A stretch of DNA of 32,827 nucleotides from a virus (Duplodnaviria > Heunggongvirae > Uroviricota > Caudoviricetes). A program made the translations under genes and the position numbers. The stretch lies in IMG/VR virus record IMGVR_UViG_2703718824_000005. One strand, 5' to 3'. The notes under the pieces were generated by a model that was not told the DNA's origin, ran no database searches, and saw nothing but the letters and a program-made list of their open reading frames with translations. Positions 3,262 through 15,549 of the stretch are shown piece after piece (the first letter of the stretch is position 1; the number at the start of each line of letters is the position of its first letter).

Positions 3262-4152
3262 ATGGAAGACGCGCTTTACGCTTTTAATTACACACAGAAC
3301 CGGGACAAGTTATTTGCTAACTTGATTAGCATCATTGATGGAATCATTGCAGATGGAGTTGTCCGTGAAGAGGAGGTTCTTTACTTAGATACATGGTTAC
3401 TTGAAGCAAAGCAGATTATCAATAATGGAGTTATAAAAAGTCTATCTGCTCGGGTGTCGGATATTCTTGCGGATGGAATAATCACATCAGAAGAACGTGA
3501 TGACCTTAAAAATAGCCTTCTCCAAATACAGAGGGAAATTCTTGATATCCCTGAAATTGATTTTTACTCCAAGGATGTAGATGTCCATTTACTTAATGGA
3601 CTATGTAAAGGATTAATTGCTGATCGGAACTTAACTCAAGAAGAAATAAGATATCTTAATTGGTGGCTTGAGCAAAATGGAGCTTTGAAGAACAACTACC
3701 CAGGAAAAAAACTTTATGCACTTGTAAAGGAAATTCTTAAAGATGGTGTTATTACTGAAGATGAGAGTTTAACTCTACATAAGGCATTAGTAGACTTCAC
3801 AGGATGTGACTTGGAAAGTGGGGTGGTGGATGGTTTGGCGACCAGGCTGCCTATTGATGTAGGGGCTTCGATAGAGTTAGAGGGTAAAACCTATTGTCTT
3901 ACAGGCACTTTTGTTGCAGGAAAGAGAGCCGTAGTTGAAAATTTGATTAAAAATGCTGGTGGGAACATCAGTAGTGGAATTACTCAAAAGTTGGATTTTT
4001 TAGTAATTGGGACGCTTTCCTCCCGTGATTGGAAATTCTCTAGTCACGGAAGGAAGATCGAAAAGGCTATATCTTATAGGGATGATAATGGTGCAAAACT
4101 TAAAATTATTTCTGAAGAAATGCTTTTCGATGCATTACCAAGTTCGCGATGA
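3262..4152 (+). CDS. Moron protein with four TerB-like repeats and a C-terminal BRCT domain
   Basis: ORF 3232..4152 trimmed to ATG 3262 (AAGGAGG RBS, 5-nt spacer); 296 aa. Four roughly 45-aa repeats with the motif ADG-x-(V/I)-(T/R)-x-EE-x3-L; the C-terminus (LEGKTYCLTGTF...KLDFLVIG...) matches the NAD-ligase-type BRCT pattern. AT-rich relative to flanking phage genes; 3' end overlaps cI by 18 bp. Confidence 0.8.
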   Translation: MEDALYAFNYTQNRDKLFANLISIIDGIIADGVVREEEVLYLDTWLLEAKQIINNGVIKSLSARVSDILADGIITSEERDDLKNSLLQIQREILDIPEIDFYSKDVDVHLLNGLCKGLIADRNLTQEEIRYLNWWLEQNGALKNNYPGKKLYALVKEILKDGVITEDESLTLHKALVDFTGCDLESGVVDGLATRLPIDVGASIELEGKTYCLTGTFVAGKRAVVENLIKNAGGNISSGITQKLDFLVIGTLSSRDWKFSSHGRKIEKAISYRDDNGAKLKIISEEMLFDALPSSR

Positions 4153-4821
4153 CCAGAATACCCTACCTATAACATGAATTCTGGCTCGTCTATCTTCAAA
4201 GGTGAGTATTTCATCTGGGTACTCATCTTTGTTGAAGCTTCTAAGAATCAAGCCACCGTCAGGTAAGTTGATAAGTATTTTAACCCTTAGCAATACACCA
4301 TCTCGTACGGCATAAAGATCGCCATCACGAATAGGAACGGTTTGAGAAATATCAACGGCAACAAGATCTCCATTATTGAGAACCGGTAATAAACTGTTCC
4401 CCCATATTTGTACGATCTTGGCATTAGATGCACATACGCCAGATTTTCTCAAATCTGCTCTTCTTAACGGAAACCAGTCAATAGCTGATTCAACTATTTC
4501 AGCCAGACATCCGTTACCTGCCGATAACTCGACATCTAAAACAGGAATGTTTACGAAAATATCGGGGTCTAATGCGGTGCTTTCTGCTTCTTTTACAACA
4601 AGATCAGGTATGGATGCGTTGTCTTCAATACCAAGTTGTAACCACTTTTGTGATACACCTAAAACTTTTGCAATTTCTTTAATTTTGCGCGGTTGTAGAG
4701 TTTCGCCATTCTCTATTTTGGCTACAGATTGTTGTGAAAGTCCAATTTTTTCAGCTAGTTGAGCTTGGCTCATGCCAGCTTTCTCTCTACCTATCTTTAA
4801 TCGTTCTGCCAGTGTTTTCAC
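4135..4821 (-). CDS. cI: CI-type prophage repressor (XRE HTH + S24 LexA-like peptidase domain)
   Basis: 228 aa; N-terminal HTH (SQAQLAEKIGLSQQSVAKIENG) and C-terminal autocleavage-type domain; divergent from the cro-like gene across an operator-rich spacer; GTG start with GAGAGGG RBS. Confidence 0.9.
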   Translation of the reverse strand: MKTLAERLKIGREKAGMSQAQLAEKIGLSQQSVAKIENGETLQPRKIKEIAKVLGVSQKWLQLGIEDNASIPDLVVKEAESTALDPDIFVNIPVLDVELSAGNGCLAEIVESAIDWFPLRRADLRKSGVCASNAKIVQIWGNSLLPVLNNGDLVAVDISQTVPIRDGDLYAVRDGVLLRVKILINLPDGGLILRSFNKDEYPDEILTFEDRRARIHVIGRVFWSSRTW

Positions 4822-4844
4822 AACATATCCCTCTCTTTTTTGAT

Positions 4845-4940
4845 GAGGTTACAACTTTATGTTTTAGCTTTCCAACACCTAAAAGTTGTGGTGAAAGTTG
4901 TTAATGTTGTATTCTTGCAGCTCGTAACAACTTAACTACC
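4845..4940. promoter_or_regulatory. O_R-like operator cluster with divergent P_RM/P_R region between cI and cro
   Basis: Repeated half-sites ACAACTT / AAGTTGT at about 4850, 4884, 4895 and 4926, including AACACCTAAAAGTTGT (4874-4889), which is near-identical to the 3153-3168 motif. Exact -35/-10 elements not resolved. Confidence 0.4.
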
Positions 4941-4956
4941 AAAAAAGGAGAAAGCT

Positions 4957-5205
4957 ATGACACCTGAGCAATTAGCCTTATCGGAGGCAATCGCTCTGGC
5001 TGGTGGTCAATCAGAATTGGCTCGGAAGCTCACAGCCAGCAGCGGTCATTTAGTAAAGCAACAACATGTCTGGAACTGGTTGAACAGAGAAAAGCGTCCC
5101 CCTGCAAAGCTCTCGATATTCATTGAAAAGACCACTGGCATATCAAAAGAAAAATTACGTCCAGATATTTTTCAAAAGATTAAAGATTCATCAGATGAAA
5201 AGTAA
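4957..5205 (+). CDS. cro: Cro-like / YdaS-family HTH regulator
   Basis: 82 aa; AGGAG RBS 7 nt upstream; HTH segment (GGQSELARKLTASSGHLVKQ) and a C-terminal EKLRPDIF motif typical of YdaS-type Cro proteins; divergent from cI. Confidence 0.8.
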   Translation: MTPEQLALSEAIALAGGQSELARKLTASSGHLVKQQHVWNWLNREKRPPAKLSIFIEKTTGISKEKLRPDIFQKIKDSSDEK

Positions 5206-5227
5206 CCACAGTTTTAAGGAGATAGCC

Positions 5228-5785
5228 GTGGGTAAGCATCACTGGAAAATAGAAAAACAGCCTGAGTGGTACGTGAAAGCTGTCAGAAAAACTATCGCGG
5301 CGTTGCCGGGGGGTTACGCTGAAGCCGCTGACTGGCTGGATGTAACAGAGAACGCTTTATTCAACCGCCTTCGTGCAGATGGCGATCAGATTTTCCCGCT
5401 GGGATGGGCAATGGTTTTACAGCGTGCTGGTGGCACTCACTTCATTGCTGATGCTGTGGCGCAGTCTGCAAATGGCGTCTTTGTGTCTCTTCCTGACGTC
5501 GAGGATGTGGACAACGCCGATATTAACCAGCGTCTGCTGGAAGTCATTGAACAGATCGGCAGTTATTCAAAACAGATTCGTTCAGCAATCGAAGACGGCG
5601 TAGTGGAACCGCATGAGAAGACAGCAATTAACGACGAGCTGTATCTCTCAATTTCGAAGCTGCAGGAGCATGCAGCACTTGTCTACAAAATTTTTTGCAT
5701 TTCAGAAAGTAATGACGCCCGCGAGTGTGCAGCTCCGGGCGTCGTGGCGTCGATTGCTTCTGGTTGTGGAGAAACTAACGCATGA
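5228..5785 (+). CDS. Phage regulatory protein, CII / YdaT-like
   Basis: Position directly after cro; GTG start at 5228 preceded by AAGGAG (alternative in-frame ATG at 5195 overlapping the cro stop). Family assignment is from position and general sequence character only. Confidence 0.55.
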
Positions 5786-12891: not shown

Positions 12892-13325
12892 GCAGAGTAA
12901 CCGCGATTATCTCCGCTCTGGTTATCTGCATCATCGTCTGCCTGTCATGGGCGGTTAATCATTACCGTGATAACGCCATTACCTACAAAGAGCAGCGCGA
13001 TAAGGCCACATCCACAATCGCTGACATGCAGAAGCGTCAACATGATGTAGCAGAACTCGATGCCAGATATACAAAGGAGCTTGCTGATGCTAACGCGACT
13101 ATCGAAAGTCTCCGTGATGATGTTTCTGCTGGGCGTAAGCGGCTGCAAGTCGCCGCCACCTGTGCAAAGTCAACGACCGGAGCCAGCAGCATGGGCGATG
13201 GAGAAAGCCCAAGACTTACAGCAGATGCTGAACTCAATTATTACCGCCTCCGAAGTGGAATCGACAAGATAACTGCACAGGTTAATTACCTACAGGAATA
13301 CATCAGAACTCAATGCCTGGATTAA
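12888..13325 (+). CDS. Rz: Spanin, inner-membrane subunit (Rz)
   Basis: N-terminus [34 protein letters not shown] matches lambda Rz; ATGA overlap with R. Confidence 0.9.
13090..13272 (+). CDS. Rz1: Spanin, outer-membrane lipoprotein subunit (Rz1), embedded in the +1 frame of Rz
   Basis: ORF 13060..13272 trimmed to the second Met (60 aa, as for lambda Rz1); lipobox-like LGVSGC followed by a Pro-rich segment; fully nested in Rz. Confidence 0.75.
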
Positions 13326-14077
13326 CAGGGGCGGATTGAACGATAGCTTTTTTCGAATTGTTATTCCTAGCACATTCTGTTCAATCTGCTGAGATCTACT
13401 CTGATGTGGGAGCACAATGGGTATCGAAATGATTATCTTGCTAGCTGCTGCGTTTAGCACTGCTACCGCTAGGGTATTCGGTCTAGGATATTCATACGGT
13501 ACTAGCGAAGTACAAATGAACGCTGATCAGAAGCGTTACGAATAGGAGGACTCAACATCTAGGCTATAGCAGAGCGCTGGATATAAGCAACGAAAGATAC
13601 CAACAAGGTATAGCAAACTGTTAATCATATGTCTGATAGTGGCGTTGATCACGAACTGCGCACAAGTAGGACATGCAAGGTTGAGTTAATTGACACAGGG
13701 CGGGACCGGGTGAGACCTATCTGTGCGGCTGTTGATTACTTGGATGAGCTCGATAAGTAGTCAAAGAAAAATATACAGGCATACAGCAAAGTATGGATGG
13801 CAGCTGTAGATAATTGTCTGAAAATATGGTTCTTAGTTAAGTGATAATGAACTTTTAAAAAAGTTAAGCATCCTACATATGTGATGTGGGTGATAGTTGT
13901 TTGTTAGCTGTTGGGACACAACATATAGAAAGTTGAGGAGAATAATGCCTTGTTGTGCAAAAAAAGCTTGATTTGCAAGTGAGAAATATGGCTAATGGAA
14001 GAAGAGATGTAGTAAGTGGATGTTTTATTTTGTTATTTATAGCTGTAGAATTTACCTAAAATCATAACCGCGGCTGG

Positions 14078-14464
14078 ATGATAATGGGTAAGTCAAAGGG
14101 CAAAGGTGGAAAATCAGGTAAAGGGCAACATTCAGTAAGTTTTGCTCAGGCATGGCGAGATGTGATGCTCAAAGCCATGACAACCGGTCAACTAGTGCCT
14201 ATAACTATAAGTATTGTACTGATGATTGCAGCTTGGCGCATGCCATCAGAGGAATTAGGAATACTAGCGCATCGAATTATTGACGGCTTAGCAGATCACT
14301 CTCTAATTGGGTATGGACTTTGTGTCATTGTTATCCTAGCGTGGTCTTGGCATGCAAGTATGATGCGCAGATGTTTTAGCGTGGAAGCTCGTCGTATTGG
14401 AGCAGAAAAAACTCTGCATCAACAGGCGAGAACACAAGTGCCACTGGGATCAAGCGACAATTAA
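14078..14464 (+). CDS. Hypothetical membrane protein with Lys/Gly-rich N-terminus and two predicted TM helices; low-GC moron
   Basis: 128-aa ORF in a markedly AT-rich island; hydrophobic segments ITISIVLMIAAW and LIGYGLCVIVILAWSW; weak RBS, start may be 14084. Confidence 0.5.
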   Translation: MIMGKSKGKGGKSGKGQHSVSFAQAWRDVMLKAMTTGQLVPITISIVLMIAAWRMPSEELGILAHRIIDGLADHSLIGYGLCVIVILAWSWHASMMRRCFSVEARRIGAEKTLHQQARTQVPLGSSDN

Positions 14465-14480
14465 TCCCTAAGGAGAAACT

Positions 14481-15059
14481 ATGCTGACAGTGCTTTTTTA
14501 TGTGCTGTTATGTATGGCAGCAGTGCATTTTATTTACGAAAGGATACTACTTCCATCTGTTCGTTTGCATTACCGCAATAAGCTTTTTGAACTGAGAGAT
14601 ATAGTTAGAAATCAAATAATTTCGAATAAAAGTAAAGATGATGTACAAGCGGCTGAGCTTGTACATGAGGCCTTAAACAACGCAATCAATCGTTTGCACC
14701 TTATGACTTTGCCCAACAGAGTGAGGGCTCAAAGGCGGCTCAGTGCTAATCCAGAGATACAGGCAAGGATCAAACGTGAGGTTGAACTTTTTCAGAAATG
14801 TGATAACGGGAAGTTAATAGCAACGATACGAGAATCAGCTAAAATCTTGGATAAGGTTTTGCTTTTCAATAGTTTAATGTTGATTATATATTCTCTTCCA
14901 ATTATGTTAACAATTTGGTCTGTGGCAAAAGTTCTGCAAACAGCCAACCAATTTTTAGAGTTACTCACTGAAAAACAAAGCCTAGAGCAGGCTGTTTTAC
15001 TTCTTCCTGATAGACAGGTTGCAAAGCTTGTTGCAGAAGAAAATTATGCATATGCATGA
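14481..15059 (+). CDS. Hypothetical membrane protein (N- and C-terminal TM helices flanking a charged helical region); low-GC moron
   Basis: 192 aa; strong AAGGAG RBS 7 nt upstream; 16-bp gap from the upstream gene suggests an operon; followed by two tandem intrinsic terminators. Confidence 0.55.
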   Translation: MLTVLFYVLLCMAAVHFIYERILLPSVRLHYRNKLFELRDIVRNQIISNKSKDDVQAAELVHEALNNAINRLHLMTLPNRVRAQRRLSANPEIQARIKREVELFQKCDNGKLIATIRESAKILDKVLLFNSLMLIIYSLPIMLTIWSVAKVLQTANQFLELLTEKQSLEQAVLLLPDRQVAKLVAEENYAYA

Positions 15060-15062
15060 TGT

Positions 15063-15088
15063 AAAAACCGCCTTCGGGCGGTTTTTTA
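15063..15088 (+). terminator. Intrinsic terminator (aaaaaccgcc-ttcg-ggcggttttt)
   Basis: Perfect GC-rich stem with tetraloop and T-run, A-run on the 5' side (potentially bidirectional); 4 bp after the moron cassette stop. Confidence 0.6.
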
Positions 15089-15142
15089 TTGCTTGTCCAA
15101 TGGACGGAATCGCCTCTATATTTCCCTTCATGGGATAGACTG

Positions 15143-15168
15143 AGCCTCGCTGATGCGAGGCTTTTTTA
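15143..15168 (+). terminator. Intrinsic terminator (gcctcgc-tgat-gcgaggc + T6)
   Basis: 7-bp stem, tetraloop, tttttt; second of a tandem pair upstream of the HNH gene. Confidence 0.6.
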
Positions 15169-15198
15169 TGCATTGATAAGCGTAAAGAGAGTCGATTA

Positions 15199-15549
15199 AT
15201 GCCACCACGAACCCCAAAAGCCTGCCGTGTTCGCGGCTGCCGCCATACCACAACTGACCCGTCAGGCTATTGCGAAAGCCACAAAAGTGAAGGCTGGAAG
15301 CAATACAAGCCGGGCCAGTCCAGACACCAGCGCGGTTATGGTTCGAAATGGGATGTTATCCGTGAACGTGTGCTCAAGCGTGACAAAGGACTGTGTCAGT
15401 TATGTCTGCGTGGTGGTGTGGTACGTGAGGCGAAAACCGTTGACCACATCATCCCTAAAGCGCATGGCGGCACTGATGCCGACAGCAATCTGCAGAGCCT
15501 GTGCTGGCTGTGTCATAAGGCGAAGACGGCCCGTGAACGGTTGAAGTAA
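15199..15549 (+). CDS. Phage HNH endonuclease, terminase-associated
   Basis: 116 aa; Cys-rich zinc motifs plus the H-N-H core (VDHIIPKAHGGTDADSNLQSLCWLCH); immediately upstream of the small terminase. Confidence 0.85.
   Translation: MPPRTPKACRVRGCRHTTTDPSGYCESHKSEGWKQYKPGQSRHQRGYGSKWDVIRERVLKRDKGLCQLCLRGGVVREAKTVDHIIPKAHGGTDADSNLQSLCWLCHKAKTARERLK

Follow-up and report, generated by a model that had tools for sequence, protein, structure and literature searches.

A TIR-less two-gene membrane-protein cassette in an e14-like Escherichia coli prophage is homologous to the membrane pair of a three-gene anti-phage locus

We analysed two small genes encoding predicted membrane proteins that lie next to each other in a 32,827-nt stretch of Caudoviricetes DNA (IMG/VR virus record IMGVR_UViG_2703718824_000005; this whole stretch is called the window below), between the lysis genes and the HNH gene. 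They were seen by a first-pass annotation, made from the letters alone, as two adjacent open reading frames (ORFs) separated by 16 bp with a ribosome-binding site on the second, and all of this is borne out: the two co-oriented ORFs occupy 14078-14464 (128 aa) and 14481-15059 (192 aa) of the + strand, the intergenic gap is 16 nt and a Shine-Dalgarno sequence read from the DNA (AAGGAG, 14470-14475, + strand) stands 5 nt ahead of the ATG of the second gene (14481). The reading frame given to the first gene was right too, but not its 128-aa start: all enterobacterial relatives keep their start within an ATGGGnAA motif, which falls at position 14084 of the window, where RefSeq also starts the first gene, while a start at the first ATG (14078) would add the residues MI to the protein. 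The 2TM gene, as we call it after the database model that its product matches, then covers 14084-14464 (+ strand) and encodes 126 aa beginning with MGK, and the 1TM gene covers 14481-15059 (+ strand) and encodes 192 aa. The pair has a guanine-plus-cytosine (GC) content of 0.405 (0.449 for ORF1 and 0.375 for ORF2), compared to 0.517 for the whole window, 0.498 for the lysis genes and 0.555 for the HNH-TerL genes. It is thus more AT-rich than its flanks (0.50-0.56), as had been noticed at first sight, and this also applies to third codon positions (GC3 of 0.33 in the pair and of 0.47-0.66 in neighbouring genes). Both ORFs are real genes, since they are conserved and under purifying selection, with a ratio of nonsynonymous to synonymous substitution rates (dN/dS) of 0.08.

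Positions 13300-15250 of the window are 100% identical to a prophage in E. coli FHI_NMBU_10, found in a 38-kb locus (L001). That prophage adjoins icd and carries intE/xisE in an e14-type integration, and it displays a lambdoid early region, a holin-lysozyme-spanin block, HNH, a P27-type small terminase, an HK97-type head and a contractile tail, with the two-gene cassette located between the spanin gene and HNH. Only 6 out of 5426 complete E. coli genomes carry the cassette, while more than 550 others have the HNH flank (from 15122) without it, so that the cassette is rare accessory cargo; both ORFs are intact in all six carriers, with 99.4-100% identity. GC content, context and borders all agree with the initial proposal of an AT-rich, autonomous moron, and they show a foreign, self-contained cassette inserted in an e14/SfI-like prophage, with the lysis genes on one side and HNH/terminase on the other. 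In FHI_NMBU_10 itself, an IS3 element interrupts the HNH gene that follows the cassette (L001 19900-21511); this gene is intact in the window (15199-15549), which therefore stems from another carrier.

The cassette is about 1.2 kb long, from about 13890 to 15090. Its 5' region (13890-14083, + strand), delimited by homology and by conserved blocks, contains several sequences that resemble promoter elements. TTGATT (13970-13975) is followed 17 nt downstream by GCTAAT, a conserved -10-like TGTAGAAT occupies 14044-14051 and corresponds to a TGTAnnAT pattern in the alignment of upstream regions, and a conserved GCGGCTGG stands at 14070-14077, directly ahead of the start codon. When aligned with the cassettes of P2-like phages, this upstream region displays conserved blocks back to about 13890, including TTGATT, TGTAnnAT and GCGGCTGG. 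From these predicted elements, we infer that the 5' region functions as a promoter. DNA homology between the window and a Klebsiella aerogenes cassette extends from 13918 to 15092 and that with a P2-like copy of the cassette from 14055 to 15090. These shared borders and upstream blocks imply that the cassette brings its own upstream region and the first of the two intrinsic terminators that follow the pair.

That first terminator, which belongs to the cassette, covers 15063-15088 on the + strand, with a hairpin at 15063-15086 (10-bp stem, dG of -15.6 kcal/mol) and then a T run. The second one (15142-15168, + strand; hairpin at 15142-15163, 9-bp stem, dG of -17.2 kcal/mol) belongs to the prophage backbone: it is included in a segment, 15122-15250, that matches more than 550 other E. 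coli genomes lacking the cassette with 84-86% identity. The two terminators must have different origins, because homology with the Klebsiella and P2-like cassettes covers the first one and stops at 15090-15092, while the backbone homology shared with more than 550 E. coli prophages (the HNH flank) begins at 15122. Judging from these limits of homology, the tandem arrangement is a junction effect that brings together one cassette terminator and one backbone terminator. The two hairpins predicted earlier are then present, but they do not jointly insulate the cassette, the second being a backbone element upstream of HNH. Over 13300-15300, 8 terminator-like sites were found when 1.9 were expected from shuffled sequences.

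The spanin gene and the cassette are separated by another low-GC segment, 13326-13889 (GC of 0.42, longest ORF of at most 43 aa), whose DNA is 68-78% similar to the Rz-like spanin regions of other lambdoid phages (mEp390, HK639 and SaltyDalty). It looks like what is left of a degraded second lysis module, hence a recombination scar, and is present in the same six E. coli genomes.

The first-pass annotation recognised neither protein; full-length PADLOC models nevertheless exist for both. ORF1 matches PDLC02978 ('2TM-TIR') with an E-value of 5.8e-57 (residues 4-128 on positions 2-124 of the 124 of the model), and ORF2 matches PDLC02977 ('1TM-TIR') with an E-value of 7e-79 (residues 1-187 on positions 1-185 of 186). 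In PHROGs, they fall into two families of unknown function, PHROG 33772 and PHROG 24550, respectively, and profile searches against Pfam, NCBIfam and PDB sequences returned no family for either protein. Both PADLOC models come from the '2TM+1TM+TIR' locus of phage P2_AC1 (AC1 below), described by Rousset et al. 2022, Cell Host Microbe (PMC9122126) and catalogued as Rst_2TM_1TM_TIR. An AC1 fragment that comprises the three genes and their native upstream region confers protection from lambda, LF82_P8 and P2 (PMC9122126). The three genes were assayed only all together, on plasmid pFD240, and the authors proposed that the TIR protein produces a nucleotide messenger that activates the membrane proteins (PMC9122126). 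The 2TM protein of the window is 62% identical to AC1 gp04 and its 1TM protein is 53% identical to AC1 gp03. In the AC1 genome (NC_070903), the gene order is 2TM (126 aa), 1TM (185 aa), a strong terminator (dG of -17.8 kcal/mol), a gap of 240 nt and TIR (315 aa). The TIR protein of AC1, gp02, used as a control, was assigned to PDLC03016 (E-value of 3e-118) and to Pfam TIR_2. Downstream of TIR, AC1 also carries a fourth hotspot gene, gp01 (L002 5999-6916), which encodes a 305-aa protein with a hydrophobic N-terminal segment; it has no PADLOC or Pfam match and is not among the three PADLOC components of the catalogued system. As for these components, the window has 2TM and an adjacent, co-oriented 1TM, and no neighbouring TIR.

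The TIR gene was indeed looked for in several ways. Neither a tblastn search with the AC1 TIR nor a hidden Markov model (HMM) made from 120 TIR homologues gave a match in the window or in L001, the 38-kb prophage locus; the pair is followed by the two terminators and then by HNH. The defining feature of the catalogued system is therefore missing here. A TIR pseudogene in the 750-nt low-GC stretch upstream of the pair was considered and ruled out, since no similarity was found and this stretch contains the spanin relic instead. The AC1 TIR gene is present in 14 of the 5426 complete E. coli genomes, always with at least 99.7% identity, and in none of the six that carry the cassette. We also found no co-encoded TIR signal generator (ThsB-like) of the kind that a Thoeris-like system would have, whether in the window, in the prophage or near distant pairs.

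The two genes form a unit that is conserved far beyond this prophage. A 2TM gene is located directly upstream of a 1TM gene, in that same order, in 53 of the 55 loci that were examined, down to about 25% identity: this is true for 26 out of 26 enterobacterial and viral loci (IMG/VR, NCBI and Logan; down to 40% identity) and, using a 2TM HMM, for 27 out of 29 distant metagenomic loci whose 1TM relatives are 25-40% identical. When E. coli and Klebsiella copies are compared, both TIR-less, dN/dS is 0.084 for 2TM and 0.080 for 1TM (dS of 0.67-0.96); when AC1 is compared with a TIR-less P2-like copy, the two values are 0.045 and 0.068. These observations confirm the earlier expectation that the pair is conserved as a unit and under purifying selection (53/55 loci, dN/dS of about 0.08). 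In some of the distant loci (L027, at 4636-5004 and 5001-5531, L050 and L054), the start codon of 1TM overlaps the stop codon of 2TM by 4 nt, which suggests translational coupling in distant relatives; the 2TM ORF of L027 is absent from automatic gene calls.

A word-index search returned 44 clusters for 1TM and 29 for 2TM, all from Enterobacterales. When a 1TM profile was compared with 1.84 billion cluster representatives (clusters at 50% identity), it retrieved 976 proteins with an E-value of 1e-3 or lower, including 729 with an E-value of 1e-10 or lower, all of about 170-195 aa and with no Pfam matches; a scan of GTDB species representatives gave one locus only. This profile similarity makes the 1TM protein part of an unnamed family that counts about 1000 clusters at 50% identity. 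The window shows the arrangement that characterises the superfamily, in which two genes on one strand follow each other directly, the first encoding a hairpin membrane protein of about 120-130 aa and the second a protein of about 170-195 aa.

In phages, the pair is found in three different slots: (i) the gpA-portal hotspot of P2, where seven distinct sequence variants lack TIR; (ii) the interval from the lysis genes to HNH-terminase, as in the window, in Klebsiella aerogenes prophages (86-89% identity) and in L008; and (iii) the interval from antiterminator Q to the holin (L016-L023). No recurrent partner gene was found in the P2 hotspots, where the neighbours are variable and include a WapI-like immunity protein, an ASCH/DUF3850 protein, a DNA methylase and others without a Pfam match. 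In one of these loci (L010 5649-6768), the pair is preceded by a 226-aa protein (no Pfam match) and by a WapI-like immunity protein (PF24716, E-value of 1e-6), which suggests that a toxin-immunity pair is stacked with the membrane pair.

The TIR gene appears to lead a life of its own as well. It accompanies the pair in only 3 of the 55 loci, and all three are AC1 or near-identical copies. The TIR family counts at least 1510 clusters from many genera, far more than that of the pair. The closest relatives of the AC1 TIR (78% identity for the E. coli one and 74% for the Klebsiella one) come from P2-like prophages (L056 5001-5960; L057/L058 5001-5960) whose gpA-portal hotspot contains no other cargo, and the backbone of L056 is nearly that of AC1-type phages (gpA 97.6% and portal 99.7% identical). 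A 60% relative stands alone between housekeeping genes of a Serratia chromosome, and the HMMs of the pair matched nothing in any lone-TIR locus. Considering these lone TIR relatives together with the terminator and the 240-nt gap that separate 1TM from TIR in AC1, we find it simplest to read AC1 as a stack of two separate cassettes, and these comparisons suggest that the catalogued three-gene system consists of two independent cassettes. A 2024 survey reported Rst_2TM_1TM_TIR as one of only two systems undetected in its bacterial genomes, which is expected if the three-gene definition describes a single lineage, as it may.

The first-pass prediction of transmembrane (TM) helices in each protein is supported by Kyte-Doolittle profiles, which display two hydrophobic segments apiece: about 35-53 and 70-90 in the 2TM protein, and 1-22 and about 125-150 in the 1TM protein. 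The latter has two rather than one, and the label '1TM' probably undercounts its helices. The 2TM protein is predicted to adopt an N-in/C-in topology (charge bias of +6/-3/+3), with a conserved C-terminal helix predicted to be cytoplasmic. Its N-terminal tail (window 14084-14130), MGKSKGKGGKSGKGQ, is Lys/Gly-rich and probably disordered; enterobacterial relatives keep its composition and not its sequence. The 1TM protein starts with a TM helix, continues with a helical domain of about 100 aa that is basic and with a second hydrophobic helix, and ends in an acidic tail. Its AlphaFold2 model is confident and all-helical, with a predicted local distance difference test score (pLDDT) of 82.5 and helices at 2-48, 52-70, 77-89, 91-105, 110-173 and 177-190, and both hydrophobic helices run into the bundle of about 100 aa, which is predicted from its charge bias (net +8) to be in the cytoplasm.

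Conserved residues are numerous in both proteins. In the 2TM protein, R25, D26, G35, Q36, P54, L61, W87, H90, A91, R95, E101, R104, E108 and Q113 are kept in at least 80% of 42 homologues, and R25, D26, G35, Q36, P54, W87, H90, R95, E101, R104, E108 and Q113 form a signature kept in at least 90% of them. In the 1TM protein, H16, F17, Y19, I22, P25, R28, R32, L35, F36, R39, D40, R43, N66, L72, N130 and P140 are kept in at least 80% of 65 distant homologues, with a signature at 90% or more made of H16, Y19, P25, R28, R32, F36, R39, D40, R43, N130 and P140. The proteins of the window have the majority residue at all signature positions, and these sit at the ends of TM helices and on one face of juxtamembrane cytoplasmic helices. 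The TM predictions, the charge bias, the helical model and the conserved charged faces fit a membrane complex, while the mechanism of neither protein can be read from homology.

Altogether, these comparisons show a two-gene membrane module that is foreign, under selection, devoid of TIR, apparently autonomous and mobile between phage accessory slots, and whose homologue is the membrane pair in a validated anti-phage locus. To account for it, we favour, with about even confidence, that the cassette is a horizontally acquired and self-contained operon whose two small inner-membrane proteins would act as one complex to exclude phages independently of TIR. The pair is apparently the TIR-less, ancestral and autonomous form of the membrane pair of Rst_2TM_1TM_TIR. 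We infer that it is expressed in lysogens, that its two proteins form a complex, that they act against phages by themselves and that they do so at the membrane. In such a scheme, the cassette would be transcribed in the lysogen from its own promoter, probably with read-through from the late operon too, and the 126-aa hairpin protein and the 192-aa protein would use their conserved charged juxtamembrane helices to assemble in the inner membrane, with the cytoplasmic bundle of about 100 aa of the 1TM protein as a putative sensing or gating part. When another phage infects, the complex would either compromise the membrane (depolarisation and abortive infection) or block genome entry, so that competing phages would be excluded without a TIR-derived signal. 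A depolarisation-type abortive infection is the mechanism that we favour, and it is a doubtful one, while a block of genome entry, its main alternative, is unlikely. More broadly, it is conceivable, with somewhat less than even confidence, that the catalogued system results from a chance stacking in one P2-like lineage, and that the pair alone is a complete and ancient membrane immune or guard module of about 1000 clusters across bacteria, which would have its own sensor, would need no nucleotide signal and would be missed by tools demanding a TIR gene.

Several observations weigh against this exclusion complex. The AC1 phenotype could stem wholly from the TIR gene. The model of the 2TM protein has a low confidence (pLDDT of 59.6). 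A consensus promoter scan found no + strand promoter upstream of ORF1, and the -35 element of the proximal promoter, kept in P2-type cassettes, is degenerate in the window; the pair may then be expressed only late, via a Q-dependent transcript. We also surveyed, with Pfam and PADLOC, 60 neighbouring ORFs around 12 distant pairs. No recurring Pfam family and no match to a TIR model were found among them; they include ligA, glyQS, gltB and kup together with some mobile or phage genes. Only about 3 of the 60 match any PADLOC model and their Pfam matches are mostly to housekeeping families, so the pair looks self-contained and its wider family is not obviously in defence islands. The suggestion of the first-pass annotation that this is a lysogenic-conversion or superinfection-exclusion module is then upheld in part: a putative role in exclusion gains from the homology (62% and 53%) to the membrane proteins of a locus that protects against lambda, LF82_P8 and P2, and it loses from the missing TIR and from distant relatives that are not visibly in defence islands.

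Other explanations have to be weighed against the same data. The pair could be an orphaned effector, the membrane arm of a TIR signalling system that would be inert here or be served by a TIR or cyclase signal made elsewhere in the genome. Such a membrane arm is what was hypothesised for AC1 (PMC9122126). CBASS, Pycsar and Thoeris include TM effectors that nucleotide signals switch on, and the conserved basic residues on the cytoplasmic side of the 1TM protein (R28, R32, R39 and R43) could bind a nucleotide. A divergent signal generator acting in trans could also be imagined. Still, TIR is missing from 52 of the 55 pair loci, the TIR-less copies are under strong purifying selection, the 60 neighbours of distant pairs gave no TIR model match, the six E. 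coli carrier genomes lack AC1-type TIR DNA and TIR homologues stand alone elsewhere, which makes this possibility very unlikely. That the pair is a decaying remnant of a three-gene system, heading to pseudogenes after the loss of its TIR gene, is largely refuted and scarcely credible: the catalogued system does have three genes and the spanin relic beside the cassette does show recombination scars nearby, but both ORFs are intact in six E. coli genomes (99.4-100% identity), dN/dS is 0.08 over a dS of about 0.7-1.0, no TIR relic was found in the window or L001, and pairs normally lack TIR throughout the family (about 1000 clusters).

If the pair does exclude phages, it might do so as an inner-membrane complex that stops the translocation of incoming phage DNA without killing the host, comparable to HK97 gp15, P22 SieA or T4 Imm. 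Its proteins are small, prophage-encoded and predicted to be in the inner membrane, the cassettes occupy accessory slots of prophages and the spectrum of the AC1 locus within the panel that was tested is narrow, with lambda, LF82_P8 and P2 (PMC9122126). We nevertheless consider it unlikely, as there is no sequence or fold similarity to known superinfection-exclusion proteins (PHROG 'unknown function', no match in BFVD) and as the family is also found in chromosomal, non-prophage contexts of diverse environmental bacteria, which would be unusual for receptor-specific entry blockers. Alternatively, the pair may have no role in defence and be a general membrane-physiology module (stress, envelope homeostasis or transport) contributing to lysogenic conversion, or a modulator of lysis timing. 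The distant homologues located among housekeeping genes (ligA, glyQS, gltB, kup) with no recurrent neighbour, the few defence genes near them and the position of the pair directly before or after the holin-endolysin-spanin block in lambdoid phages would fit with this. It is quite unlikely given that P2-like copies are in the gpA-portal hotspot, a known anti-phage reservoir distant from lysis genes, that the sole experimental link is a defence phenotype (the AC1 locus), that the proteins show no similarity to holin or antiholin families, and that the pair is patchy, rare (6/5426 E. coli genomes), AT-rich, mobile and equipped with its own terminator in phage copies, all of which points to an accessory rather than a housekeeping function. 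A holin, antiholin or spanin identity was rejected: neither Pfam nor PHROG gave a lysis annotation, and P2-like phages as well as non-phage chromosomes have the pair at a large distance from any lysis genes.

Other parts of the prophage may carry further cargo. At about 3262-4152 of the window (L001 7963-8853), a low-GC patch (0.35-0.40) contains a gene for a 'BRCT domain-containing protein', which is convergent with the XRE repressor gene and overlaps its 3' end; it may be a second moron or defence candidate. Beside intE and outside of the window (L001 1751-3462), a DUF262-domain protein and a hypothetical protein are encoded between icd and the integrase gene. DUF262 is found in GmrSD-type restriction enzymes, and these genes may be further defence cargo at the end of the prophage. 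An Rfam search over the whole window gave no matches.

What is new here is that a catalogued defence system appears composite and that a large family, as yet without a name, is defined by its two-gene core. This core, now annotated as 'hypothetical protein', is far more widespread than the three-gene system. Should the pair work alone, one entry of the defence catalogue would be mis-defined, and the pair would represent a minimal, all-membrane, two-protein exclusion module with no enzymatic domain, and a useful model for how infection is sensed at the membrane. This would also bear on the published model, in which TIR signals to TM effectors. For prophage biology, the cassette offers a case of one element moving among three slots (P2 hotspot, Q-holin and lysis-terminase).

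Among known systems, lambda RexA/RexB, like other prophage modules for abortive infection with a membrane effector, has two genes and includes a polytopic inner-membrane protein. The cassette resembles it as a two-gene prophage module with a membrane protein, and the outcome proposed for the pair, a loss of membrane potential upon superinfection, would be analogous, which is a functional analogy only: there was no Rex match in PADLOC, Pfam or PHROG, and both proteins of the window are predicted to be membrane-bound, with no soluble RexA-like sensor. HK97 gp15, P22 SieA and T4 Imm are small inner-membrane exclusion proteins that occupy accessory slots of temperate phages and act on a narrow range of phages. 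The likeness in size, location and slot is again an analogy, as homology is not detectable and as the family of the pair is widespread outside prophages and behaves as an obligate two-protein unit. With the TM effectors of type II Thoeris, CBASS and Pycsar, the pair would share the logic of TIR signalling and TM execution proposed by Rousset et al. (PMC9122126); it differs from them by the absence of a linked signal enzyme in 52 of the 55 loci and by the lack of similarity to PADLOC TM effectors beyond the two AC1-derived models. The closest system remains Rst_2TM_1TM_TIR of P2_AC1, which has full-length homologous 2TM and 1TM proteins, the same gene order, a short spacer, the upstream blocks and a terminator straight after 1TM, and which is also accessory cargo of a prophage. 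The window differs from it in having the pair without TIR and in a lambdoid/e14-like slot between lysis genes and HNH instead of the gpA-portal hotspot. Since the pair and TIR are each found alone in the P2 hotspot, it is the AC1 arrangement that looks like the exception.

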